Source: an uncultured Acidimicrobiales bacterium
GTDB taxonomy: Bacteria > Actinomycetota > Acidimicrobiia > Acidimicrobiales > SHLQ01
Reading direction: 5' to 3'
NCBI GenBank assembly: GCA_937934655.1
Contig: CALGZB010000070.1
Coordinates: forward strand, 3,005-67,004
Length of the DNA stretch: 64,000 bases
Shown here: positions 2,336 to 62,850 of the stretch, in pieces
How positions within the stretch are numbered: position 1 is the first letter of the stretch
How the letters are laid out: every line of letters starts with the position of its first letter
Program-made: the position numbers and the translations under genes
The notes under the pieces: generated by a model
Database searches by the model: none
Told to the model about the DNA's origin: nothing
The model's input: only the letters and a program-made list of their open reading frames with translations

Positions 2336-3757
2336 TTAGAGCATGGCCCCAGGCACATAGCCTGCCGCATCAGGGAACTCTGCAAATAGCGGCGCTACTC
2401 GCTCGAGAAACGATGCCACCTGCTGCTGCGCCGTGCCGGCCAGATCGAGCGGGTCGCCGAGGGCACCGGTAAGACCGTCGATATCCATTGGAAGACGATC
2501 ATCAGCGGCAAGCCGGGCAAACAAATCGTTGTCAGATGTTGCGTGCTGGCGCATTTCGAGCGCCACAGCTACCGCATGTTCCTTAATGGCCTCGTGGGCA
2601 GCTTCGCGGCCAGCGCCGTTCTTTACCGCGGCGACCAGAATCTTCGTGGTGGCCAAGAAAGGCAGGTACCTGTCGAGCTCGCGCTGGATAACCGCAGGGT
2701 ATGCCCCGAATTCATCGAGCACCGTAATCATGGTCTCGAACAGCCCATCGAGAGCGAAAAAGGCGTCGGGCAAAACAACTCGGCGCACCACCGAGCAGCT
2801 CACGTCGCCCTCGTTCCATTGGTCGCCGGTAAGCCCGGTGGCCATGGTGAGGTGACCGCCGAGAATGGTGTGAAGGCCGCAGACCCGTTCGGTACTGCGG
2901 GTGTTCATCTTGTGAGGCATGGCTGACGAACCAACCTGGCCATCTTGAAAGCCCTCGGTGACCAGTTCGTGCCCGGCCATAAGACGGATTGTTGTCGCCA
3001 AGCTCGCCGGTGCGGAAGCCGACTGCACAAGCGCCGACACGACATCGAAATCCAGCGACCTCGGATAGACCTGGCCAACGCTGTCGAGGGTGGCGGAGAA
3101 ACCAAGATGCTTCGCCACTCGATCTTCGAGTTGATCGACCTTTGTGGTGTCGCCTTCGAACAGGTCGAGCATGTCTTGCTGGGTGCCGACCGGCCCTTTG
3201 ATTCCTCGCAGTGGGTACCGATCGAGAAGTCCATCGAGGCGAAGCAGCGACTGCCAAAGCTCTTCGCCCGCATTCGAAAAGCGCTTCCCAAGGGTGGTGG
3301 TTTGGGCAGCCACGTTGTGGGACCGGCCAGTGAGCGCAACCGCCGAGTAATCGTCGGCTCGCCGGGCGATGCGTGCCAGCAAGGCAATCATTCGGTCGCG
3401 GACTAACTCAAGGCTCTGTCGGACCTGAAGCTGCTCGACGTTTTCGGTGAGGTCACGCGAGGTCATGCCCTTGTGAACGTGTTCGTGCCCCGCGAGTGCG
3501 CAGAACTCTTCGATGCGGGCCTTCACGTCATGGCGGGTGCGTTCTTCTCGCACGCGAATCGAGTCGAGATCGACGTTGGTGAGGTGCTCGCGGTAGTCCT
3601 CAAGAACGCCATCGGGAACATCAACCCCCAGATCACGCTGTGCTTCAAGGACGGCCAACCAAAGCTGGCGTTCGGCGACGACCTTGTTGGTGGCCGACCA
3701 GATGTTGACCATCTCCGCCGATGCGTACCGGGTTGCGAGCACGTTTGGAACTGACAT
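2336..3757 (-). CDS. purB: Adenylosuccinate lyase
   Basis: NVLATRYAS, RHDVKA, HKGMTSRDLTEN, GSSAMPHKMN signature; start moved to ATG 3757 (MSVPNVL) just after the purD stop. Confidence 0.93.
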   Translation of the reverse strand: MSVPNVLATRYASAEMVNIWSATNKVVAERQLWLAVLEAQRDLGVDVPDGVLEDYREHLTNVDLDSIRVREERTRHDVKARIEEFCALAGHEHVHKGMTSRDLTENVEQLQVRQSLELVRDRMIALLARIARRADDYSAVALTGRSHNVAAQTTTLGKRFSNAGEELWQSLLRLDGLLDRYPLRGIKGPVGTQQDMLDLFEGDTTKVDQLEDRVAKHLGFSATLDSVGQVYPRSLDFDVVSALVQSASAPASLATTIRLMAGHELVTEGFQDGQVGSSAMPHKMNTRSTERVCGLHTILGGHLTMATGLTGDQWNEGDVSCSVVRRVVLPDAFFALDGLFETMITVLDEFGAYPAVIQRELDRYLPFLATTKILVAAVKNGAGREAAHEAIKEHAVAVALEMRQHATSDNDLFARLAADDRLPMDIDGLTGALGDPLDLAGTAQQQVASFLERVAPLFAEFPDAAGYVPGAML

Positions 3758-6330: not shown

Positions 6331-6566
6331 TTAGTCGACTCCGTTACGGAACGACCTTAGTTCGCCCAACCCCTCGATGAGCAACCGCAAATGACCAGTT
6401 TCGAATTCGGGCACCAAGAAATAACAACACTTATTGAAAGGCACTGGTATGTGCACAAAGGTCTGGCACCTTAATGCGTCCAGAGTGACAAGTGGGGGAT
6501 TTGTGGAGAATGTTGCTAAAGAGGTACCTTCGGCGAGGAACGAAGTTCTTTGGTAGGGAGTATCCC

Positions 6567-7730
6567 GTGGCGTACACCGCAACGAATAATGAAAACAGGC
6601 ATCACACACCGCGCATCGTGCGTCTTGGATTTGGTGCACTACTCACCGTCTTGGCCACGCTGTTCGCCTTGGCGCTGTTCAACGACGGCGACGCCGTGCA
6701 GGCCCAGGCCGGACCGAGCCCCGCCGGATGCGGCGGCGACTTCGCCAACTCCTTCGGCTCCGTAAGCTTCGACACCGTTGTCGGCGACAAGGTTCTTTCA
6801 ACCTCTCCAACCTCGCAGACCTACAGCCTCGGATCACCGATTCCGGCAGGCACCTACCAACTCGCTGCAGTGAGCTACGACGGGTACACCGGCCGCGAAA
6901 GCACAACCGGTCAAGGCAACGAACAATGGGTTGCCCAGCTGCTCGACGGATCCGGAAACGTTCTGGCAACCAGCGGCACCACCGGCGATCTTGCCGACGG
7001 CGTCTCTGAGGCCACCTGGAGCGGAGGCATTGGCGAAGTAACCGTCAACGGCACCGTCACCCAGATCCGTGCAGTGCATGCAGCCATCGGCTCATCCACC
7101 GTCAACTCGGTACGGCCAGTCTGCGTAGGCGCCCGCTTAGTCTCTGCACCACCGGAGACGACGCCTCCAACCACCGCACCGCCGGAGACCATTCCTCCTG
7201 AGACCGTCCCACCAGAAACAGTCCCACCAGCAACAGGGGCAAGCTCGATCACGGTCCAAAAAATCACCGAAGGTGACGAAGAGTTCGAAGCAACGCTCAC
7301 CCTCGACTGCGGTCCGAGTGGTTCGGCCCGCGGAACCGATCGCAACCCATCAATCTCGGTCGGCGACCTTCCGGTTGGGGCCACCTGCCTTATCTCGGTC
7401 GAAGCAGACGGCGCAGCGAATATTGCGTTCAATGTCGAACCCGCATCGGTTATTCCGATCTCTGAACCCGGCAACGCCATCAGCATCACCATCCCCGCTG
7501 AGGGTCTCGACATCGTGGTCTCCATCAGCTGCATCCTCGAAGGTGGCGGTGAGGTCGACCCGGAACCACCGGCCACCACACTGCCGCCCGCACCCGAGCC
7601 AGAGCCGGAACCAGAGCCTGAACCACCAGCGCCGGAGCCCGAACCAGAACCAGCTCCTCAACCAGCCAAACAACCAGCTGACCAGGAACCGGCACAACCT
7701 GTCGCTGCCGAGCCGGACTTCACCGGTTAG
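6567..7730 (+). CDS. Secreted protein with two beta-rich domains, Pro/Thr- and Pro/Glu-rich linkers and a C-terminal PDFTG
   Basis: AGGGAG RBS before GTG 6567; hydrophobic N-terminal segment ending AVQAQA; PPETxPP and (PE)n low-complexity runs; ends ..QPVAAEPDFTG-stop. Confidence 0.7.
   Translation: MAYTATNNENRHHTPRIVRLGFGALLTVLATLFALALFNDGDAVQAQAGPSPAGCGGDFANSFGSVSFDTVVGDKVLSTSPTSQTYSLGSPIPAGTYQLAAVSYDGYTGRESTTGQGNEQWVAQLLDGSGNVLATSGTTGDLADGVSEATWSGGIGEVTVNGTVTQIRAVHAAIGSSTVNSVRPVCVGARLVSAPPETTPPTTAPPETIPPETVPPETVPPATGASSITVQKITEGDEEFEATLTLDCGPSGSARGTDRNPSISVGDLPVGATCLISVEADGAANIAFNVEPASVIPISEPGNAISITIPAEGLDIVVSISCILEGGGEVDPEPPATTLPPAPEPEPEPEPEPPAPEPEPEPAPQPAKQPADQEPAQPVAAEPDFTG
7148..7229 (+). 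repeat. Coding tandem repeat PPET(T/I/V)PP linker
   Basis: Translation PPETTPPTTAPPETIPPETVPPETVPP. Confidence 0.6.
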
Positions 7731-7785
7731 CCGATAGAAACAACGAGAGAGAACGAAAGAACTCGCCCACCAAATTCGAAACAAG

Positions 7786-7957
7786 TGTTGTGCTTGGCTG
7801 AAGTTCGCCTTGGGGCAAAGGCGCCAGCCACAGAGCACCACAAAGCCATCTCAGGGAGTGGGGCAACATCCCCTGAGAAGGCGACTGGGACCTGACAGGT
7901 TCTCCAACTGACTTTTGTGGGGCAGCTGGAGAGCCAACGTCAGGTCCCTCTATTTTT
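7786..7957 (+). ncRNA. Candidate structured small RNA: three consecutive hairpins each carrying UGGGGCA, the last followed by a U-rich tract
   Basis: CGCCTT-GGGGCA-AAGGCG inside TGGCTG/CAGCCA; TCTCAGGG..GT-GGGGCA-AC..CCCTGAGA; GGGACCTGAC..TCTCCAACTG..TGGGGCAG..CTGGAGA..GTCAGGTCCC then TCTATTTTT. Strand inferred from the T tract only. Confidence 0.5.
7887..7957 (+). terminator. Intrinsic terminator-like long hairpin between convergent genes
   Basis: Perfect 10-bp outer stem GGGACCTGAC/GTCAGGTCCC followed by TCTATTTTT. Confidence 0.5.
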
Positions 7958-8083
7958 CCAGCGTTCCCTGGGCACGCAGCCCAACTGGGCTCGGGCTACA
8001 GGCTGGCGCCTTCCGCCCTACAGACTTCCAGCAGAATCAGCGCTTTCTGCTTGGTTGCAACACTCCAGAAGCACCGACGTGAC

Positions 8084-10564
8084 TTACTCGAAGGTCAGCG
8101 TGTCGCCTTTGAGATCGACGGTTACTTTGTCGCCTTCTCCGAAGGTTCCTTCTAGGAGTAGTAGGGCTAGGCGGTCACCGATCTCGTTTTGGATGACGCG
8201 CTTTAGCGGGCGGGCACCGAAGTCTGGGTTGAAGCCGTCGGTTGCCAGTTTCTTCTTTGCGGCCTCGGTGACTTCGAGAGTGATTCGGCGTTTGGCCAAG
8301 CGCTTCTCGAGCGACTGCAGCTGAATGTTCACGATGTGGGCAAGGTCGTCCAGATCGAGCGGCCGGAACCGCACCATGTCATCGACTCGGTTTACGAATT
8401 CCGGACGGAAGAAGTCGAGCGGATTGCCCGGAAGGTTCGACGTCATAATCAAGATCACGTTGGTGAAATCAACGGTTCGTCCCTGGCCATCGGTAAGACG
8501 GCCATCGTCGAGGAGTTGCAACAACACACCAAACACATCGGCGTGGGCCTTCTCGACCTCATCAAGCAACACCACCGAGTACGGACGGCGACGCACCGCT
8601 TCGGTGAGTTGACCCCCTTCGTCGTAGCCGACGTAACCAGGAGGCGCACCAATGAGCCGACTTACCGAAATCTTCTCCATGTACTCGCTCATGTCGATCC
8701 GCACCATGGAGCGTTCGTCGTCGAACAGGAAATCGGCAAGGGAACGAGCCAGTTCGGTCTTACCCACACCCGTCGGGCCAAGAAAGAGGAAGCTACCGAT
8801 TGGACGGTTGGGGTCGGACAGGCCAGCCCGGCTTCGTCGGATTGCGTTCGCCACCACGGTCACCGCATCGTCTTGGCCGACTACCCGTTCATGCAACACC
8901 TCTTCGAGGCGAACGAGTTTGTCGACCTCGCCTTCCATCAGTCGCGAGACCGGCACACCGGTCCAGTTCGATACCACCTCGGCAACGTCTTCCTCGTCGA
9001 CCTCTTCCTTCAACATTTTGGTGCTGACCTGCAGCTTGTCGAGCGCAGCGGTGGATTCTTCGATACGGCGCTCGAGCTCGGGAATCTGCCCGTAACGAAT
9101 GGTCGCCGCTTTTTCGAGGTCGGTTTCGCGGTCGATGAGCGTGTTCAACGACTCCAACAGCTCCTTCTGCTCGCGAATCTGATCGATTGCTTCCTTCTCC
9201 GACTCCCAATGTGCCCGAAGGCCGGTGAGGGTCTTCGTGAGGTCAGCGATCTCAGATTCGAGGTCGGCCAGACGTTCTTGGCTCGACCGGTCGGTCTCTT
9301 TGGCAAGGGCCAACCGTTCGATCTCAAGCTGGCGGATTCGCCGCTCGACCACATCGATCTCGGTCGGAACCGAATCGATTTCGATGCGAAGCTTGCTCGC
9401 CGACTCGTCGACAAGGTCGATGGCCTTATCGGGCAGGAACCGCCCGGTGAGGTAGCGATCGGAGAGCACAGCAGCAGCGACTAAAGCGGCGTCTTGGATC
9501 CGTACACCGTGGTGCACCTCGTAGCGTTCCTTGAGGCCGCGCAGGATAGCGATGGAGTCCTCGACCGACGGTGGCGCCACCAAGACCTGCTGGAACCGGC
9601 GTTCGAGAGCCGGGTCCTTCTCTATGTGTTTGCGGAACTCGTCCAGCGTGGTGGCGCCGACCATATGGAGCTCACCCCGGGCAAGTAGCGGCTTGAGCAT
9701 GTTGCCGGCATCCATCGAACTGTCGCCACCAGCGCCCGCGCCCACAACGGTATGCATCTCATCGATAAAGGTAATGACCTCGCCGTCAGCGTCGGTGATC
9801 TCTTTGAGTACCGCCTTGAGCCGCTCTTCGAAATCGCCGCGGAACTTTGCACCGGCGACCATCGACGTGAGGTCGAGCGACATCACCCGCTTGTTTCGCA
9901 GAGACGATGGCACGTCTCCTTCGACAATGCGTGATGCGAGGCCTTCGACGATGGCAGTCTTTCCCACGCCTGGTTCGCCGATAAGGATCGGGTTGTTCTT
10001 CGTTCGACGTGAGAGAACCTGAATCACCCGGCGAATCTCGTCGTCGCGGCCGATGACCGGATCGAGTTTTCCAGCGCGAGCGGCGGCGGTGAGGTCCTCG
10101 GCGTACTTCTCGAGTGACTTGAACTGGTCTTCGGGGTTCTGGGTGGTGACCCGGTGATTCCCGCGCACCTCACGAAGTGCTTCGAGTACTTCCTCGCGCT
10201 CGAGGTCGAGACGGTCAGCCAGAGCGAGCAACAGGTGCTCAGTAGAGAGGTACTCGTCGCCCAAGTCTTCGCGGGCCTGGTCGGCCTGCTCGATTGCGGT
10301 GGTGAGTTCGCGACTGATCCGGGCCTCGGAGCCATACGCCGACGGCAGTGTCGAGATCTCATTGTCGATTCGGTTTCGAACCGCTAGCGGCGACTCGCCG
10401 AGGTAGTCGAGCATCGGGAGAACAATGCCCTCGCTCTGCGAAACCATGGCCGACAAGAGGTGAGCCGGCGTGATCTCCGGGTTGTTTTTCGTCTTCGCCA
10501 GCGTGGTTGCAGCGGTGACAGCTTCTTGGGTCTTCAGTGTCCAGCGGTTTGGGTCAAAGGCCAT
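8084..10564 (-). CDS. clpB: Chaperone/disaggregase ClpB
   Basis: [13 protein letters not shown], two Walker A motifs ([16 protein letters not shown]), [10 protein letters not shown], coiled-coil M domain, [17 protein letters not shown]. Confidence 0.96.
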
Positions 10565-10576
10565 GGACCAATTCTA
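10565..10576 (-). promoter_or_regulatory. Leaderless-type -10 box of clpB
   Basis: TAGAAT lies 6 nt upstream of the clpB ATG; its TAG is the stop codon of the upstream gene. Confidence 0.5.
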
Positions 10577-13558
10577 TCGAAGAACCTCAAATGGTTCGGT
10601 TTGGCTGAACTCGATTCCGGCTGCGTCACCGACGCCGATCGTGCAACGTTCGGTTCCGCAATCGCTGAAGAAGGCTTCGACGGTGAACCCACCCGTTCCA
10701 TCGCTCGTTACCGGCGTGAGAGTGCCGGTGTCGCAACTCTCCGGCGTTTCCGCACCGTCGTCGCACGGCAGGATGAACATGGCGAGGCCAGGGACAAATC
10801 CCTTTCCGGTCACGGTCACCACTGAGTTAGCGGAAATCGGCCCCTCCGTCGTGATGGTGAGAGTACCTGTCCCGGGTTCAACCGGATCTGCGTTCCGATC
10901 AAACACCAGCGAAACTTCGGACTGATTTGGCTCGCCATGGTTCGAGTAATCGGTAATCAGCAAGACACATGACCTGGGCGTCGAAGCACAGTCGAAAGGT
11001 GTCTCGACTTCTTCGGGCCCAATGTTGCGGCGCACCCGAACCGTGACGGTCAGCGAGCCTTCGTCGCGTGTCCCGCCGCCCAGAGCGACGTACACACATG
11101 ACCCTTGTAGAACCTCCCCGTCGAGACGGACACACTGCCGAACGTCCAAGTGATTCGCTCCAGCGAGCGAAACAGTGACGAGCTGCCCGTCAGCCAAACC
11201 CTTCCTTGGATGCACCCGCGGCTTTGCTGGCGGAGGCACCTCGACCTCGGCATCGAAGCGGAGGTTGACCATTCCAATCACCTGATGGCTATTGCGGCGA
11301 AGCAACACCAGACGACACCGACCGGCCGCCTCGGCACAATCGACATCACCCAGATTTCGCCGGACGGCCACTGCGCTCTGGCGAGTATTTGGGTCTTCGT
11401 CCGGGTTCGATACGTTCCGCTGCTGGAGATAGAAGCAGTCGCCCGTATTCCCTTCCTCATCACGCACACACTGCTGCGCCTGGAACCTTCCCCCGGTGTT
11501 TTCTCCGGTTACCACCACGGTTTGCCCGTCGACCAGGCCACGCCGCGGCTTGGCCTCAAAGACTGGTTGTGGATCGCCGGGAACATCAGGGTCAAAGCGC
11601 AATAGCACCCGGCTTGTTTCGCGATGCCCTATGAAGAGTCGAAGCTGACATCGAGTGGTCGCACAGTCGACGCCATTTACGATTCTTCTCGGTGCGACCG
11701 TCCCGCGGGTCACACCATTCGCCTGAACCTGATTCTGTACTTGGAGTCGGAGACACCCATAGTTGGAGGATCGATCGGGGCATTGCTGCAGATTCCAGCC
11801 CTGTCCGACCCGTCCTACCTTGATGGCAACCGGCTCGCGATTCTTCAAATCATTACGTTGCGCCAGACGAAACTTTTCGGTCAGCGGGGATCCTTCGCTC
11901 TCGAAGTTGACCAGCAGTCGCCGCATTGGGCCATCGGTACCAAAGACTCGGAAGTCGCAGGACTTGGGTTCTCGACAGTCAACCTGTTCGGATGCCGTGC
12001 CGACATAACGAACCGGGGTTACCCGCACGGTGAAGCCCTCGAGTCCAATGATCGGAGGGTCCGTACGACTGCGTTGAGCGTCGCCGATCCTTTGGCATCG
12101 ATGATCGAGGTGCGTCATGGCCGACCGCGGACATTGTCCAACCTGCACGTACTGAGCTCGTGAGTTCTTCACGGTGATCGAAACCTGCGTTCCGGCCTGA
12201 AGTCCGTTACGAGACTTGATCTTGACGACGGGTTTTGCGACCACCAACTCTGGGTCGAATTTCAGTATTTGGCTGAGGGCAGTAATGCCTTCCTCAGACT
12301 GCACCGCCAGCACACACTTTGTCTCGATGCAGTCGGTTCGCCGAGATCCATCGTGGTCCTCGATGAAGATCGATCGGCGCACCTGGACGTTGCCAGCGAG
12401 CGAAACCGGACCACCCTCGGACTGGTTTCCGACCGTACCAAGTGGACCGATGGTCGTCGGTGTCGGCGGAGGGCCAGTCGTCGCTGGAGGATCGCCCTGC
12501 GGCGGAAGCGTTGTTGTCGGTTGGTCTCCGCCACCGTCTCCGTCCCCGCCGCCGCTGTAGTCCTGAAGCGACCCGACATACCGACACGTGGAACCGTCGA
12601 CCAAACCATTCGCCGTCAGGCCGCACTGGGTCACGTACGCGTAGGACATCAGGCGTTCGCCCTCCTGCGCAGTGATTGTCAGCGACACGACATCGCCATC
12701 GGCAAGGTTCTTTCGCGGCCGGACTTTTACGGTTGGCCCTGACTCAACCAGAGCCTCGGGGTCAAAGCTGATCGCGACCGCCGATGCCGGACGACCCGAG
12801 CCCTGCACAAACAGCACGCAGTTAGTTTTGGCGCAATCGAGCTGGCCAACGCCATGAACCGTTAGAACCCTCGACACCATGACCTCGGCTCGGAAGGTTC
12901 CATCGAGTTCGGCAGCGTCAGCTATTCCGTGCCTGCATTCGTTTCCGAGATTCGGGCCACACTGATTGATCCAGATGCGTTCGAATGGTTTGAAACCAGC
13001 GCCTTCAACGGTGATGAGTTCACCGTCGATGAGATCGTCCGCAGGCATGGCAGTTGCGGTTGGACGGGGATTCGGCGCCGTAGCTGGGTCGAAGGAAATC
13101 GCCACCGATTCGACAAGTTGGTCACCGAAGTACGGCATCACCGACAACACGCATGCGTCCACTGCGCAGTCACGGACTCCGTCGGCCAAGTCAATCTCGC
13201 GATAGACCGCAGCCGAAACGGAGCGAGGAGCACCGTTGCCGTGCCCGGTTTCAAGGAAGCCAAGCATGGAGGGATCACAATCGTCAGCGGTCGTGGCACT
13301 CGCCAAACACTGACGGACGACATAAACCTGGTACTCGATGGGCACTGAGGCTGACACCTGTACCTGTTGCTCGTCGACAAGGTCGGTGCTGGGCACAACG
13401 GTGAGGGTCGATGCCGTTTGCGCCGACGCCGAACCGGCCGCAGTCCCAAGCACCACGCAACACGCAACGACCAAAAGGCCGACGCCCAACAAAAGAGTGC
13501 AGAACCACGACGTCGAGGCCTGCGAATTCTCACTGACTTCAATCGTTCGGCCGTTCAA
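10574..13558 (-). CDS. Large secreted protein with 8 tandem neocarzinostatin-apoprotein-like domains
   Basis: Signal peptide ending ASA-QT; repeated V.P..xLxDGQxVxV ... QC..C ... R....DC...C.L ... (I/L)xFD units with 4 Cys each; start at TTG 13558 after GGGGA is uncertain. Confidence 0.8.
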   Translation of the reverse strand: MNGRTIEVSENSQASTSWFCTLLLGVGLLVVACCVVLGTAAGSASAQTASTLTVVPSTDLVDEQQVQVSASVPIEYQVYVVRQCLASATTADDCDPSMLGFLETGHGNGAPRSVSAAVYREIDLADGVRDCAVDACVLSVMPYFGDQLVESVAISFDPATAPNPRPTATAMPADDLIDGELITVEGAGFKPFERIWINQCGPNLGNECRHGIADAAELDGTFRAEVMVSRVLTVHGVGQLDCAKTNCVLFVQGSGRPASAVAISFDPEALVESGPTVKVRPRKNLADGDVVSLTITAQEGERLMSYAYVTQCGLTANGLVDGSTCRYVGSLQDYSGGGDGDGGGDQPTTTLPPQGDPPATTGPPPTPTTIGPLGTVGNQSEGGPVSLAGNVQVRRSIFIEDHDGSRRTDCIETKCVLAVQSEEGITALSQILKFDPELVVAKPVVKIKSRNGLQAGTQVSITVKNSRAQYVQVGQCPRSAMTHLDHRCQRIGDAQRSRTDPPIIGLEGFTVRVTPVRYVGTASEQVDCREPKSCDFRVFGTDGPMRRLLVNFESEGSPLTEKFRLAQRNDLKNREPVAIKVGRVGQGWNLQQCPDRSSNYGCLRLQVQNQVQANGVTRGTVAPRRIVNGVDCATTRCQLRLFIGHRETSRVLLRFDPDVPGDPQPVFEAKPRRGLVDGQTVVVTGENTGGRFQAQQCVRDEEGNTGDCFYLQQRNVSNPDEDPNTRQSAVAVRRNLGDVDCAEAAGRCRLVLLRRNSHQVIGMVNLRFDAEVEVPPPAKPRVHPRKGLADGQLVTVSLAGANHLDVRQCVRLDGEVLQGSCVYVALGGGTRDEGSLTVTVRVRRNIGPEEVETPFDCASTPRSCVLLITDYSNHGEPNQSEVSLVFDRNADPVEPGTGTLTITTEGPISANSVVTVTGKGFVPGLAMFILPCDDGAETPESCDTGTLTPVTSDGTGGFTVEAFFSDCGTERCTIGVGDAAGIEFSQTEPFEVLR

Positions 13559-13705
13559 AGTGTCATCCCCTATGTCAAAACTGCACATTTTGCGCCTAAG
13601 GCGGAGGGTACAGGATTGTGCCAACGAGGCAAGGGAGACTGGGCGGTTGAACGTCGTTACTGGTCAACTTTTCGGGCAGGGGTCAAATCCCGTTGGCGCG
13701 TTTTC

Positions 13706-57203: not shown

Positions 57204-58319
57204 TTAGCGCTTGTAGTTGGGGATCACGAATGGCAGGTCGGAAACATGGCACGCCACTCGTTTTCCGCGCACGTCGGCCTCGAGTTGGGTTCCAACGACT
57301 GATGCTGCAGCCGATACGTACCCCATGGCGACGGGACCATCGACCGATGCCCCAAAACCGCCACTGGTAACGACGCCGACCAATTCGCCATCGGCGTTGA
57401 AGAGTTCGTTACCTGGCCGAATCGGCCGTCGCTGAGCGGTTCCGATACCAACCCGGCTGCGGGTCGGTCCGTCGGCCTGCTGCTGCGCCACAACGTCGGC
57501 TCCGGGATAGTCGCCGGCCTCGCGGCGCCGTTTTGGAACCGCCCACATCAGGCCAGCTTCAACGGGTGTGGTTTCTTCATCAATGTCGCTGCCGTACAGG
57601 CAAAGGCCAGCTTCGAGACGAAGACTGTCGCGGGCGGCGAGCCCGGCGAACTCAACGCGTTCGTCGGCCAAGAGCTTTTCGGTGACGCCAACCACCATGT
57701 CGGCCGGCAAGGCCAGCTCGAACCCATCTTCGCCCGTGTAGCCGCTGCGGGTGATTCGGATATCAGCAGAACCAGCAGGCGTGGTGATTGCGACGATGCC
57801 GCCCGTCATGAACCCAAGGCCGGATACATCAATACCGAGGTCGGTAAGAACCGCTTCTGACTTTGGGCCTTGAAGCGCAATGAGATGCAGGTCGTCGCGT
57901 TCGATGACTTCGACACCGGCAAGGGCTTGCAGGTGAGCCACGTCGTGGGCAACTCGCGAGGCGTTGACAACAACACTCACTCGTCCATCGGGCATCGCCC
58001 AAGCGATGAGATCGTCGAGGATGCCACCTTGGTCGTTGGTGAAAAACGTGTACCGAAGCTTGTTCTCGGCGAGCGTGGTGATGCCGCCCGGGACCAACGT
58101 TTCGAGCGCTTCAGCTGGGGCGTCGCCGACGAGGTCGACGACACGCATGTGCGACACATCGAAGATCGACGACGATTGACGCGTATGAAGATGTTCGGCG
58201 ATGGCACCTTGGCCGTCATAGGACAATGGCATCGAGTAGCCGGCGAATGGCCCGAACTTTGCGCCCCGGGTTTCGTGAAGCGCATGTAAGAGCGTGGTCT
58301 CGAGTTCGGCGTCAGCCAT
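57204..58319 (-). CDS. gcvT: Glycine cleavage aminomethyltransferase T
   Basis: EHLHTR..IFDVSHM, GILDDL, ALQGP, RSGYTGEDGFE, GLAARDSLRLEAGLCLYG, TPVEAGL, TSGG..AMGYV. Confidence 0.9.
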   Translation of the reverse strand: MADAELETTLLHALHETRGAKFGPFAGYSMPLSYDGQGAIAEHLHTRQSSSIFDVSHMRVVDLVGDAPAEALETLVPGGITTLAENKLRYTFFTNDQGGILDDLIAWAMPDGRVSVVVNASRVAHDVAHLQALAGVEVIERDDLHLIALQGPKSEAVLTDLGIDVSGLGFMTGGIVAITTPAGSADIRITRSGYTGEDGFELALPADMVVGVTEKLLADERVEFAGLAARDSLRLEAGLCLYGSDIDEETTPVEAGLMWAVPKRRREAGDYPGADVVAQQQADGPTRSRVGIGTAQRRPIRPGNELFNADGELVGVVTSGGFGASVDGPVAMGYVSAAASVVGTQLEADVRGKRVACHVSDLPFVIPNYKR

Positions 58320-59160
58320 CAGTGTCTCCGTGAACGTACTGCCAGCCGAAGCGACCCTTAATGCAAAGGTTGCCCCACGTAACCGAGTGGTCGTCGGGGG
58401 AAGTGACCTTCACGATGCGCTCGTCCTGGGTGTGAAGCTCAAGGTTACAGCCGACACCGCAATACGAACAGACCGTGGTGGTCACCGTCTGGTCTTCCGG
58501 GCGCCAGTTGGCCACCTGGCGAAGATCAAACTCGGTTTTGAACTGCAGGGCATTGGTAGGACAAACCGCCACGCAGTTCCCGCAGTAAACACATGCCGAG
58601 TCAGGCAGGGTTACATCGAACTCGGTTGCGATGCGAGCACCGAACCCGCGGCCCGACATCGAGATGGCGTACGTGTGCTGAGCATCGTCGCCGCAGGCCG
58701 AGACGCACTTGTAGCAAAGGACACATTTGTCATAATCGCGAACGTAGAGATCATCTTGGATCTTGATCTCTTCGTTCATCCGCTCCGGGTTTTCGTAGCG
58801 GTCGGGTTGCGCGCCGTACTTAGCGCTCCACTCGTTGAGCTCGTCAGCCTCGCTCAGGTCCACACCAGATCCCAGGAACTCAAGAACCATCTTGCGACTG
58901 TGGTTCACGCGATCCGAATCGGTGCTAACAACCATTCCTTCTTCGACCGGTCGCGAACACGACGGCACGAGTGTGCGCGACCCTTCGAGCTCGACCACAC
59001 AAACCCGGCAGGCGTTGACCGGCGTCAGGTTAGGCCCGTAACAAATCGTTGGCGTCTCGACTCCGGCCGCGGTGCATGCGTCGAGAATCGTAGATCCCTC
59101 GGGCACCGCTACATCGTTGCCGTCGACCGAGATGGTCACCGCTACTTCGGTACTAGTCAT
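58312..59160 (-). CDS. Formate dehydrogenase Fe-S subunit (free-standing N-terminal part of FdsA/FdhA)
   Basis: 2Fe-2S (C..ACRVC..C), CVLCYKCVSAC, CVYCGNCVAVCP and C-terminal CSYCGVGC..LCIKGRFG (molybdopterin-enzyme Fe4S4 domain). Confidence 0.85.
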   Translation of the reverse strand: MTSTEVAVTISVDGNDVAVPEGSTILDACTAAGVETPTICYGPNLTPVNACRVCVVELEGSRTLVPSCSRPVEEGMVVSTDSDRVNHSRKMVLEFLGSGVDLSEADELNEWSAKYGAQPDRYENPERMNEEIKIQDDLYVRDYDKCVLCYKCVSACGDDAQHTYAISMSGRGFGARIATEFDVTLPDSACVYCGNCVAVCPTNALQFKTEFDLRQVANWRPEDQTVTTTVCSYCGVGCNLELHTQDERIVKVTSPDDHSVTWGNLCIKGRFGWQYVHGDTDG

Positions 59161-60899
59161 TGGTTTGCTCCGATCAAGCCCAGAGCGAGTGCGCTCTTGA
59201 TTGCCGATGCAGCCGTGTGGCCGAGACCACAGATCGACGCATCGGCCATTACTTGCACCATGTCTTCATGAAGAACCCGCTTCTCGTCGGGCATTGGTTT
59301 GTGGCCGATTGCCACGATCATCTCGTGCTGGCGAATTGCACCAACCCGACATGGCACGCATTGTCCGCAGGATTCGTTCTTGAAGAACTCGGCGATGCGT
59401 TGGCAAATGTCAGCCATGTCGTCGTCGGTGTTGAACACCATGACCACACCGGAGCCCAGCGTGGTGCCGGCTTCGCGTGTGGCTTCTAGTGTCAGCGGCA
59501 GGTCCATGGAGTCGCTCGTGACAAAGCTGCCCGCTGCCCCACCTAGGAGCACTGCCTGCACCTCACCAGAAGCGCCTCCGGCGGCCTCGATGATCTCGCC
59601 AAGGGTTGCACCGAATGCGTGCTCGTACAGCCCTGGCGCTCCGACACGGCCTGATACGCAGAACAGGCGAGTGCCTGGCGACCGTTCGGTGCCGATCGAC
59701 CGGTATGCCGCTGCGCCATCGAGAACGATAGGCAGCACATTGAGCAGCGTCTCAGGGTTGTTGATGACGGTGGGCTGGTCGAAAAGTCCGTTGGTGGTGG
59801 GGAACGGCGGCTTGTTGCGTGGCTCGCCCCGGAAGCCCTCGAGTGAGTTAAAGAGTGCGGTCTCTTCGCCGCAGATGTAGGCACCGGCGCCGCGTCGCAC
59901 CTCGAGGTGAAACTCCTTGCCACTTCCCGCAACGTCCTCGCCAAGCAGACCAGCATCGCGTGACGCCATGATGGCGTTCTCGAGACGCCCGGTTGCCTGC
60001 GGATACTCCCCGCGAATGTAGATCCAGCCGTTGGTGGCACCCGTCGTGACCGCGGCAATGGTCATTGCCTCAATCAAGGCGAACGGGTCGTGCTCCATGA
60101 CCATGCGGTCCTTGAAGGTTCCTGGTTCGCTCTCGTCGCAGTTTGCCACAATGTGCTTCTGGTCGCCGTCGGCGTCGCGAACCGCCGTCCACTTGATGCC
60201 GGTAGGAAACGCTGCGCCACCTCGACCTGAAAGACCAGAGTCGGAGATGGCAGCGAGGACGCCATCGGCGCCGAGTTCGAGGGCCTTGGTGAGCGCCTCG
60301 TAACCACCATGCTCACGGTACGAATCGAGGCTGGTCGGGTCGACAACACCGATCCGCTGGAGAAGCCGAAGAGAGTCGTCGCCCGCTTGAGGAAGGACGA
60401 AGGCGTCATCATCGGCCGGAACCACATCGGGGCGCTTGCGCCCCTGGATGAAGACCGCCGGTGGTCGTTCGCACTGGCCAAGGCACGGGCTTCGATGCAC
60501 GTGTTTCCCTTCGGCCTCGAGCGACGCGATGAGATCGTCGGCGCCGTCGATGCGGCATGCGGGGTCGATGCAAACGTGTACGACGTCGTCGTCGTGACCG
60601 GGTTCGGTGTCGACTCGGAACATCTCATAGAAGCTGGCCACGCCGTAGGACTCGGCTGGCGGCACCTGAAGGACTTCTGACAGGTAGTTCAGGCCGCCCG
60701 GGCTAATCCAGCCCGACTCCTTCTGCAAGGCATGTAACGCCGGTAAGAGGAGGTGGCGCAGTCCGCGGCGGCGACTGGCCCCGCCACGAACAATCCGTTC
60801 GCCCTCGATCGTGAGGGCGCTGTTCTCGCCAAGCGCAAGATCGATGGCGTTACGTTCACCGTCGTTCGCGATGGCGTCGGTGAAATGAAGGTCGGCCAT
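59157..60899 (-). CDS. Fused NuoE-NuoF-like diaphorase subunit (FdsG+FdsB-like)
   Basis: LLPALHALQ..GWIS, C....C / CLGQC 2Fe-2S; GRGGAAFPTG, DESEPGTFKDR, GAGAYICGEETAL, ESCGQCVPCR, SICGLG. Confidence 0.88.
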   Translation of the reverse strand: MADLHFTDAIANDGERNAIDLALGENSALTIEGERIVRGGASRRRGLRHLLLPALHALQKESGWISPGGLNYLSEVLQVPPAESYGVASFYEMFRVDTEPGHDDDVVHVCIDPACRIDGADDLIASLEAEGKHVHRSPCLGQCERPPAVFIQGRKRPDVVPADDDAFVLPQAGDDSLRLLQRIGVVDPTSLDSYREHGGYEALTKALELGADGVLAAISDSGLSGRGGAAFPTGIKWTAVRDADGDQKHIVANCDESEPGTFKDRMVMEHDPFALIEAMTIAAVTTGATNGWIYIRGEYPQATGRLENAIMASRDAGLLGEDVAGSGKEFHLEVRRGAGAYICGEETALFNSLEGFRGEPRNKPPFPTTNGLFDQPTVINNPETLLNVLPIVLDGAAAYRSIGTERSPGTRLFCVSGRVGAPGLYEHAFGATLGEIIEAAGGASGEVQAVLLGGAAGSFVTSDSMDLPLTLEATREAGTTLGSGVVMVFNTDDDMADICQRIAEFFKNESCGQCVPCRVGAIRQHEMIVAIGHKPMPDEKRVLHEDMVQVMADASICGLGHTAASAIKSALALGLIGANQ

Positions 60900-60903
60900 G
60901 TCG

Positions 60904-62850
60904 CTATGCCTCTGCTGCTACGAGCGGCTCGACGCGAATCGAGGCCGCCTTAAATTCGGCAGTGCCGGATTTCTTGTCCCACGCATCGGTGGTGAGGACG
61001 TTGGTATCGACAAGGTCGGGAAAGTGGAACGTGGTGAACGTAAGCCCCTCGACGAGCGAGTCATCGATACGGATTCGCATTTCCACGGAACCTCGAGGTG
61101 ACGACACCAGCGCCATGTCGCCGTCGTTCAAGCCCAAGCGTTGTGCGTCGGTCTCATGCATATCGAGCGCATCGCCGTAGCGAATTGGTGAACTGAAACC
61201 ACCCGATTGCACACCGGTGTTGTAGCTATCGAGGGCCCGACCTGTGGTGAGGCGAAGCGGGAACTCCTCGGTGAGCTCTTCCTTTGGTCCCTGATGGACC
61301 ACCGGGATGAACGGAGCCGGCTCACGACCTTCGAGATCGTCGGCCCAGAGCCATCCGTGCAAGAACGGCGAACCGGGGTGATCGAGTGCGGGACACGGCC
61401 ATTGCAACCCACCGGTCTCCTCGAGACGATCCCACGACATACCCAGGTGCATTGGCGATAGCGAACGAAGCTCGTCCCACAGCTGCTCTGGATCTGGGGT
61501 GCCCCAGTCGTGGCCCATCCGGGAAGCAAGGTCGAACAAGATATCGACGTCGTGGCGGGCCTCACCTGGTGGTGGCACTGCGGCCCGAACCCGTTGCACG
61601 CGTCGCTCCGAAGAGGTCACCGTTCCGTCAGATTCTGCCCAAGCGACCGACGCAGGGAGAACAACATCGGCCATCTCGGCGGTTCGGGTCATAAAGATGT
61701 CCTGCACAACCAGAAGGTCGAGGCCAGACAACAGCTTTCGAGCGTGTTGAATATCGGCCTCAGAATCAGCCGGGTTTTCGCCAAGCACATAGGCCGCTTT
61801 GATTTCGCCACGTTCCATTGCTTCGAACATGAGCGTGAGGTGCTTGCCCGGAACCGGATTGAGGTCGACACCCCAGGTAGCTTCAAACTTTCCGCGTGCC
61901 GCATCGTCGTCGATGTTCTGAAAGCCCGGAAGTTTGTTTGGCAGCGAGCCCATGTCGCCGCCGCCCTGCACATTGTTCTGACCACGGAGCGGCACCAAGC
62001 CACTCCCCCAGCGGCCGATATGGCCGGTGAGCAGCGCCAGGCTGCAGAGGGCCAACACGTTGTCGACCGCGTTGTGGTGCTCGGTGATACCGAGGGTCCA
62101 CAGAATCTGAGCGGACTCAGCCGTGGCGTAATCGTGCGCCAGTTCGCGAATCGCGTCTTCTGGAAGGCCAGTGAGCTGGCTCGTAAATTCGAGCGTGTAT
62201 GGCTCGACGTTTTCTTTGTACGCCTCAAACCCCTGTGTGGAGTGGGCAATGAACTCTTTGTTGGCCAGACCAGCAGCAATGATCTCGCGACCGATGCCAT
62301 TAGCCAGCGCAACATCGCTGCCCAGGTTGAGTCCGAGCCACACATCGGCAAACTTCGCCGATGACGTGCGTCGGGGATCGACGGCGAACATCTTGGCGCC
62401 GTTGTCGATGCCTTTCAGCAGGTGATGAAAGAAGATGGGGTGCGCGTTGCGGGCATTTGAGCCCCAGAGCACGATGAGATCAGTTTCCTCAATCTCGGTG
62501 TAGGAGGACGTTCCGCCACCCGCACCAAACACTGTCGCCAGACCGACGACCGAAGGAGCGTGTCAAGTTCGATTACAGGAGTCGATGTTGTTGGTACCCA
62601 GCACAACACGACCGAACTTCTGTGCGGCGTAGTTCATTTCGTTCGTAGCCTTCGAACAGCTGAACATTGCGAACCCCTCGGGTCCGAGTTCGTCGTTAAC
62701 CTTGGTGAAACCTTCAACGACGCGGGTAAGAGCTTCATCCCAACTCGCCGGACGAAGTTCACCGTCTTCGCGCACCATTGGTGTGGTGAGCCTCTTCTTC
62801 GGAAGGAACTGCTTTGTTCCCCACTTGGACATGGACTTCGGCTTCGACAC
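60904..62850 (-). CDS. fdhF: Selenocysteine-containing Mo/W-bisPGD formate dehydrogenase catalytic subunit
   Basis: Track ORFs 62563-62892 and 60904-62532 are one frame: NNIDSCNRT-TGA-HAPSVVGL; also LRGQNNVQG, QDIFMT.TA, TSSERRVQ, LTTGR, AEFK; GAGGT RBS before GTG 62850. Confidence 0.9.
62534..62550 (-). promoter_or_regulatory. SECIS element of the formate dehydrogenase gene
   Basis: GTCGTC-GGTCT-GGCGAC hairpin; GGTCT at +19 to +23 after TGA, the same register as the E. coli fdhF SECIS. Confidence 0.8.

Follow-up and report, generated by a model that had tools for sequence, protein, structure and literature searches.

Acidimicrobiia are abundant, mostly uncultured marine and freshwater Actinomycetota, about whose RNA regulators, to our knowledge, almost nothing is known. 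A stretch of 64,000 nucleotides (in the following, the window) from an uncultured Acidimicrobiales bacterium was analysed. Its source genome, G000, is an assembly of 308 contigs (90% complete, 60.7% G+C). A first reading made from the sequence alone had drawn attention to a region in which the heptamer TGGGGCA is repeated on three successive hairpins. This raises the question whether the region encodes a regulatory RNA that displays a G-rich motif, and on which strand, or whether it is a terminator region only.

Three hairpins carry the same G-rich motif

The structured RNA element spans positions 7786–7957 of the plus strand, comprises about 172 nt and is present as a single copy in G000. Its TGGGGCA copies at 7811–7817, 7859–7865 and 7918–7924 fall into three separate hairpins with unrelated stems, the third of which is followed by TCTATTTTT, exactly as the sequence-only reading had described. 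Hairpin 1 (7785..7841) carries the first copy and displays the loop GGGGCA. Its 5' strand TGTTGTGC (7786–7793) is invariant, its middle helix covaries, and an invariant inner helix closes the loop. Hairpin 2 (7845..7882) presents the second copy within its apical sequence TGGGGCAA, and hairpin 3 (7887..7948), the presumed terminator stem, holds GTGGGGC (7917–7923) on the 3' side of its apical region. The U-rich tail (7949..7957) lies directly 3' of the base of hairpin 3 and presumably represents the 3' end of the RNA.

The plus strand folds with −98.2 kcal/mol (z = −4.58) and the minus strand with −104.2 kcal/mol (z = −4.85), and in neither case was any of 200 shuffled sequences as stable. In partition-function folding, GGGGCA/GGGCA of hairpins 1 and 2 are unpaired with probabilities of 0.97–1.0 in the four closest genomes. 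For hairpin 1, the loop bases reach at least 0.97 in all six genomes of the genus; for hairpin 2, the probability is partly lower in G001 and G003. The motif of hairpin 3 is predicted to be mostly paired within a weak, G-U-rich upper helix. The initial description of all copies as lying at or near an apex holds with this nuance for hairpin 3.

The heptamer as such is not enriched. Its total in the window corresponds to chance (8 copies, 7.6 ± 2.6 expected; at least eight in 45 of 100 shuffles), and the 590 copies on both strands of the 4,735,845 bp of G000 rank only 76th among the 210 permutations of the same letters. From this genome-wide rate, about 0.02–0.05 same-strand triplets within 114–200 nt are predicted (own arithmetic), so that the two triplets found in G000, the element and a tandem repeat on another contig, represent clustering beyond chance. 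A coding function of the element was rejected, since indels of one and two bases in the six-genome alignment speak against a conserved reading frame; at 61% G+C, stop-free stretches carry no information on coding potential.

Loop cores are invariant on covarying stems

In the alignment of the six sequences of the genus (G000–G005; 183 columns, mean column identity 81%), conservation begins sharply at TGTTGTGC (7786) and stops at the T-run, and neither the upstream spacer nor the downstream DNA aligns. The 3' boundary is also indicated by a strain-variant contig (run X6), which diverges from the window directly after 7957. Five letters differ in this contig, and the four that could be placed (7832, 7833, 7857 and 7883) are all located outside of the heptamers.

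Within these boundaries, the motif cores TTGGGGCAA (hairpin 1), TGGGGCAA (hairpin 2) and GTGGGGC (hairpin 3) are invariant in all six genomes. The full heptamer occurs three times in G000 and G004 only; G001–G003 and G005 have TGGGGCG as the third copy, which reduces the invariant common core to UGGGGC. These cores are unchanged throughout the genus although the identity of the whole element to G000 drops to 70–72%.

The stems behave differently. In the RNAalifold consensus of 55 pairs, 13 have both sides changed in at least one sequence and are thus compensatory. Among 326 cells, 91.4% pair, compared with 86.4 ± 0.7% in column shuffles, and the observed pairing, compensatory-pair count and covariation score were reached by none of 500 such shuffles; these statistics are modest since they derive from only six related sequences, the shuffles ignore relatedness, and the structure was drawn from the same alignment. 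Sliding the partners by 1–3 columns lowers pairing to 39.5–48.3%. Most compensatory changes belong to helices 2, 5 and 7, where they affect 4 of 6, 3 of 9 and 4 of 15 pairs, respectively. Helix 3, the inner helix of hairpin 1, is 100% paired and hardly varies, and helix 5 of hairpin 2 is 90.6% paired. In hairpin 3, nine of the ten pairs of the lower stem (helix 6) are invariant, and the upper stem (helix 7) covaries. In hairpin 1, the pairing partner of the TGTTGTGC strand varies, while this strand itself does not. Collecting homologues and examining their covariation thus substantiates the earlier proposal that selection acts on a displayed motif: cores stay invariant and stems covary in all six genomes.

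The element is confined to one genus

The element occupies part of a 353-nt spacer (7731–8083) between convergent genes. The upstream gene on the plus strand (6492..7730), the presumed parent transcript, encodes a protein of 412 amino acids with an N-terminal hydrophobic stretch and a Pro/Glu-rich tail, for which no Pfam or NCBIfam family was found; the product is a putative secreted protein. Between its stop codon and the element lies an A-rich, T-poor linker (7731..7785), which is not conserved in sequence and measures about 32–75 nt across the six genomes. On the other side, clpB is encoded on the minus strand (8084..10564), as identified by TIGR03346 (1232.4 bits at a cut-off of 1232.1) and Pfam domains. 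The arrangement of 412-aa homologue, element about 32–75 nt past the stop codon and convergent clpB is found in all six genomes; in G003 the stop codon of clpB is located 4 nt from the end of the element. Next to clpB, a minus-strand ORF of 1016 amino acids (10574–13624) resembles the neocarzinostatin family in three stretches (PF00960; E = 8e-23).

Directly 3' of the RNA, at 7955–8023, a dispersed repeat of about 60–70 nt was observed, which is often tandem and often located at contig ends. With the whole 353-nt spacer as query, and the RNA's own match included, 2 matches were obtained in G000, 9 in G004, 20 in G003 and 22 in G005. In an alignment of ten copies, G/C blocks are swapped between the two strands of two short helices, so that the fold may be conserved; one copy taken alone is no more stable than shuffled sequences (z = −0.77). 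The repeat has no match in Rfam.

By BLAST, the element was detected in all five other genomes of the genus and in none of 35 other relatives. A covariance model built from the six sequences recovers it in all six genomes with E-values of 1e-32 to 1e-47; with Infernal's stricter filters, it gave no match in 36 further genomes of the family and 150 further genomes of the order. A pattern restricted to the loops matched 47 loci in 185,579 species genomes, five of which are the element in known relatives. The other 42 were dismissed, as they have, by eye, nothing in common beyond the motifs, and most are short-period repeats with a recurring motif. Two metagenome scans, a plasmid collection and a phage collection gave no match to the element.

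Compared with the RNA, the upstream protein family is far more widespread, with members in 38 of 42 genomes of the family. At four homologous loci in other genera, the gene is followed either by purA (two loci) or by a plain terminator hairpin (two loci). The combination of an older, wider gene family with a narrowly distributed RNA points to an innovation that arose within one Acidimicrobiales genus, at the 3' end of an already existing gene, as far as gene and element distributions reveal. A possible ancestral form, GGGGCAAAAGG 3' of the homologous gene in genome G019, sits in a stem and was judged a coincidence.

In conclusion, the element is real and more than a terminator: it is a structured RNA, specific to one genus and conserved there, whose stems covary and whose reiterated G-rich loops do not change.

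Strand, promoter and 3' end

Several observations favour the plus strand. The predicted structure contains 29 G-U cells, each corresponding to an A-C mismatch if the minus strand is read, versus 8 A-C cells, although the structure used for this count was itself predicted on the plus strand. The minimum free energy of the plus strand is lower in five of the six sequences and about equal in G004. The RNAalifold consensus energy barely separates the strands (−61.8 kcal/mol for plus, −60.6 kcal/mol for minus). Finally, a TTTT run follows hairpin 3 in all six genomes, whereas on the opposite strand a T-rich stretch past hairpin 1 exists only in G000, G004 and G005. Taken together, G-U counts, folding energies and T-run make the plus strand the favoured functional strand.

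TANNNT is the usual −10 pattern in actinobacteria. In none of the six genomes is it present within 90 nt upstream of the conserved boundary, where about 0.7 occurrences per sequence are expected by chance (own arithmetic). A consensus scanner found no sigma-70-like site between 6300 and 8300, and no hairpin with a U-tail was found between the stop codon and hairpin 3. At the other end, hairpin 3 combines a G+C-rich lower stem of 10 bp with TTTT(T) in all six genomes and thus resembles an intrinsic terminator, even though the U-run starts 4–6 nt past the stem, which is not textbook terminator geometry. A simple terminator scanner missed this hairpin because of its loop limit of 8 nt.

The missing −10-like hexamer makes it probable that the element forms the 3' UTR of the upstream gene, from which a small RNA may be processed. 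A search for RNA sequencing runs that contain the locus gave none. The previously proposed regulatory RNA retains its conserved structure, but the idea of a free-standing sRNA of about 170 nt has to be adjusted.

Comparison with known RNA families

In Rfam 15 no family matches at gathering score anywhere in the window. In E-value mode, six chance-level matches were listed for 7650–8150 (E at least 1.4; 5.6–16.7 bits at cut-offs of 55–90); they involve miRNA and lncRNA models as well as BjrC80 (13.2 versus 80 bits) and were discarded as noise. This agrees with the first impression of an unrecognised family, and judged by its sequence the element belongs to no described one. In a literature search of limited coverage, nothing relevant was found on sRNAs with G-rich loops in Actinobacteria or Acidimicrobiales.

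Two analogies had been put forward before, CsrB/RsmZ protein sponges and, on the minus strand, the 6C RNA. Like CsrB/RsmZ, the element repeats one short motif across hairpin loops. However, the motif of these RNAs is GGA, bound by CsrA/RsmA, whereas the loops of the element read GGGGCA or GGGCAA. Moreover, G000, which is 90% complete, gave no match to CsrA (PF02599); among the 14 control genomes named, the model matched three, those of E. coli, B. subtilis and T. maritima, all above cut-off. As two defining features, GGA loops and a CsrA gene, were not found, the CsrB/RsmZ analogy fails. Hfq was likewise not found in G000 (90% complete).

For 6C (RF01066), no match in the window reached the gathering score of 47 bits, nor is the family among the six weak matches on 7650–8150. 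In G000 there was no match at E ≤ 10, a result of limited power because the Corynebacterium control stayed below the cut-off as well. In addition, C-rich loops with four C each are found on the minus strand only, the favoured plus strand being G-rich. Lacking an RF01066 match and opposed by the strand evidence, the minus-strand 6C reading is unsupported. Comparison with 6C remains instructive. Mycobacterial 6C uses its C-rich loops to bind mRNAs directly; a few G-C pairs formed by single strands are enough, and neither Hfq nor ProQ is needed as chaperone (PMC6486639). 6C and the element both occur in the high-GC Gram-positive phylum and both have short homopolymer-rich apical loops on separate hairpins as working parts, which for the element are presumptive. 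In contrast to 6C, the loops of the element are G-rich on the favoured strand and thus of opposite polarity. Furthermore, 6C is described by a model of 75 positions, whereas the element consists of three hairpins over about 172 nt, shows no match to that covariance model, is confined to one genus and lies within a 3' UTR.

Capture by G-rich regions, two or three per RNA, has been reported for two further RNAs. RsaI of Staphylococcus aureus captures the C-rich sRNAs RsaG, RsaD and RsaE (10.1101/278127), and for RosA of Bacillus subtilis, which captures the C-rich RoxS and FsrA, three G-rich regions are reported (PMC8216469). The element, too, carries several short G-tracts, three in number. The tract of hairpin 1 is predicted to be single-stranded in all six genomes and that of hairpin 2 mostly so, with the third only partly exposed. 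RosA and RsaI differ from the element in that they are stand-alone genes from Firmicutes under CcpA control; they also share no sequence or model similarity with it. Searches with the 6C model and for clustered GCCCCA yielded no C-rich partner sRNA in G000.

The position of the element invites a last comparison. 3'UTR-derived sRNAs of the enterobacterial CpxQ/SroC type share the terminator of the parent mRNA, depend on Hfq and use linear seeds. Similarly, a coding sequence on the same strand precedes the element, which lacks its own promoter-like hexamer and ends at the presumed terminator of the mRNA, in conserved synteny in all six genomes. Its seeds, however, would be formed by apical loops, and a search for Hfq was negative. 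Overall, the element is best placed among those small RNAs or 3'UTR RNAs in which one seed or binding motif recurs on several hairpins, and the recurrence of its G-rich sequence suggests an undescribed regulatory RNA.

Candidate targets

Loops with the core UGGGGC(A) could pair with C-rich RNA of the core GCCCCA. A search for clustered GCCCCA in non-coding DNA led to mRNA leaders and dispersed repeats, but to no clear conserved sRNA; the search for 6C, a low-power test, gave no match. The most conspicuous site is a 15-nt tandem repeat of four units, of which three contain GCCCCA and the fourth ACCCCA (G000:C193:26044–26100; L092 ~3045–3101). On this contig TGGGGCA is antisense to the leader, and the repeat is positioned directly 5' of the Shine-Dalgarno-like AAGGAAG and a GTG start codon. 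The gene behind it encodes a paralogue of the A subunit of type IIA topoisomerases (NF004044, 743.6 bits at a cut-off of 654), whose GTG start is backed by two observations: similarity to relatives sets in there, and G002 has an ATG at the corresponding position. The loop of hairpin 1 and a repeat unit can form 11 bp with −19.7 kcal/mol, a value equalled by 1 in 3000 random genomic windows. For hairpins 2 and 3, pairing with this leader does not stand out (0.05 and 0.42 of background, respectively). As a conserved target the repeat was rejected: GCCCCA is absent from the 170 nt in front of the orthologues in G004 and G005 and occurs once each in G001 and G002 (the leader of G003 was left out), and the tandem repeat is species-specific among the five leaders of the genus examined.

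About 25–80 nt 5' of the topoisomerase paralogue, a CGAAC-N4-GTTCG palindrome was noticed in nearly all inspected genomes of the family (L093–L116). We take it to match the actinobacterial LexA/SOS box, in which case the paralogue would be part of the SOS regulon.

The leaders of recN carry GCCCC copies directly 5' of the start codon in three genomes, namely four in G000 (L128, C107), three in G001 (L124, C75) and two in G004 (L127). Those of G002, G003 and G005 are not C-rich and have no GCCCC(A) runs. Pairing with these leaders is strong only in G001 (hairpin 1, 0.004 of background) and modest in G000, and recN was likewise not retained as a conserved target.

Genome-wide counts gave no further candidates. 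GCCCCA triplets are not enriched in G000 (5, compared with 3–5 for control words), and in G001–G005 the triplet pattern was matched twice as opposed to 16 times for a reversed-pattern control. The sense-strand frequency of GCCCCA in spacers (46 versus 29) mirrors a general C-richness: in 1087 co-directional spacers of G000, the sense strand contains 615 CCCC versus 465 GGGG and 30 CCCCCC versus 5 GGGGGG, counts which, like all context counts, are rough, since they rely on crude gene calls that missed even the upstream 412-aa gene. Single 10-mer complements occur at chance density only, and none of 21 sites near start codons in G000 is outstanding. Four copies of TGCCCCA at 57348–61500 of the window lie inside minus-strand ORFs and were dropped.

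Two kinds of C-rich non-coding DNA were noted besides. A REP-like palindromic family of G000 has outer inverted arms and a central TGCCCCA and is intergenic in both orientations (C40:13373, C110:2426, C200:9198, C252:21836, C293:1638 and C97:5557). In related non-coding stretches near contig ends (G000:C40:1–450 and the end of C250), GGCCCCA comes after a conserved box; the stretch in C40 ends in a hairpin that resembles a terminator.

Proposed mechanism and alternative explanations

The conserved structure, invariant loops, strand preference, synteny and narrow distribution were all computed here. Transcription, the position of the 3' end, processing and action by pairing are inferred. With a probability of roughly 45%, and hence tentatively, we propose a genus-only 3'UTR RNA of about 172 nt, possibly released as an sRNA, which acts by chaperone-independent loop pairing. 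The mRNA of the upstream gene would run through the element and end at hairpin 3 and the U-run, and processing of this 3' UTR may yield a small RNA. The G-rich core UGGGGC(A) would then be presented by two apical hexaloops and by a third, less exposed copy, and direct pairing of these with single-stranded C-rich RNA would be the most likely mechanism. If the partners were mRNA leaders, or alternatively a C-rich sRNA, the element would serve as a regulator or as a sponge. The 3'UTR part of this proposal is based on the position on the same strand about 32–75 nt past the stop codon in all six genomes, the absence of TANNNT and the plain terminator that takes its place in two other genera. Pairing is suggested by the failure to find CsrA or Hfq in G000, by the predicted duplex between the hairpin 1 loop and the topoisomerase leader, and by the precedents named above, chaperone-free pairing of 6C and G-rich capture by RsaI and RosA.

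A more far-reaching version of loop pairing is quite improbable. By analogy, Acidimicrobiia might possess a 6C-like system of reversed polarity, in which a 3'UTR RNA uses its three G-rich loops to clamp, at several positions at once, arrays of C-rich sites within mRNA leaders. The example would be the four tandem units before the ribosome-binding site of the topoisomerase paralogue, with the SOS-box-like palindrome upstream. Were this true, expression of the secreted-protein gene would be tied to DNA-damage and topology genes without the involvement of a chaperone.

Since no conserved target has been established, a protein-binding RNA is kept as an alternative, which appears somewhat unlikely. 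The UGGGGC(A) loops would be recognition sites, and the RNA a sponge or decoy, or else a stability or localisation site in the 3' UTR of the upstream mRNA. Identical loops on unrelated stems are a hallmark of protein-titrating RNAs, and their strict invariance goes beyond the needs of pairing alone. However, there is no candidate protein: neither CsrA nor Hfq was found in G000, the loops lack the GGA of Csr/Rsm RNAs, and neither neighbour, clpB or the putative secreted protein, is an RNA binder by family. Moreover, a protein would meet a third copy that is presented unlike the first two. Clearly less plausible is a structured 3' end without any function in trans, that is, a compound terminator and mRNA-stabilising 3' UTR common to the upstream gene and clpB, where loop conservation would stem from the needs of folding or termination. 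The location between convergent genes, 4 nt from the clpB stop codon in G003, would fit such a role, as would the near-invariant 10-bp stem of hairpin 3 with its T-run and the simple terminator found here behind homologues of the upstream gene in other genera. Yet terminator loops usually vary, whereas here three loops keep their core across six species as stems change; termination does not require hairpins 1 and 2, which lack a U-tail, and the TGTTGTGC strand is invariant although its partner varies.

The remaining alternatives reassign the strand or the motif. A functional minus strand, with 6C-like C-rich loops (UGCCCCA) belonging to the 3' UTR of clpB or to a transcript with its own promoter, is very improbable. 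This strand folds well, as mentioned above, with a consensus energy near that of the plus strand and a T-rich stretch past the reverse complement of hairpin 1 in three genomes, and C-rich loops are the proven working part of 6C (PMC6486639). It would, however, turn the 29 G-U cells into A-C mismatches against 8 in the converse case, it folds more weakly in five of six sequences, it has no T-run in G001, G002 and G003, and RF01066 matches neither window nor genome. Barely credible, finally, is a mimic of the anticodon loop of tRNA-Pro(GGG), in which the loops would imitate U33-GGG-G37 and engage a factor recognising tRNA-Pro, tied to the Pro-rich upstream protein. The anticodon loop of this tRNA in the genome, CUGGGGG, has UGGGG in common with the motif, but this likeness extends over five bases only. 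The predicted loops measure 6 nt or much more rather than 7 nt, the closing stems are unlike those of a tRNA, and both ARAGORN and Rfam call nothing at the element.

Significance

The genus carrying the element consists of uncultured marine Acidimicrobiales, and with one genus and six genomes its reach is narrow, which limits its general importance to a moderate level. Acidimicrobiia appear to be without Hfq and CsrA. Against this background, the element would add a family to Rfam in a poorly covered class, and it would be a clean example of chaperone-free loop pairing with a polarity opposite to that of 6C.
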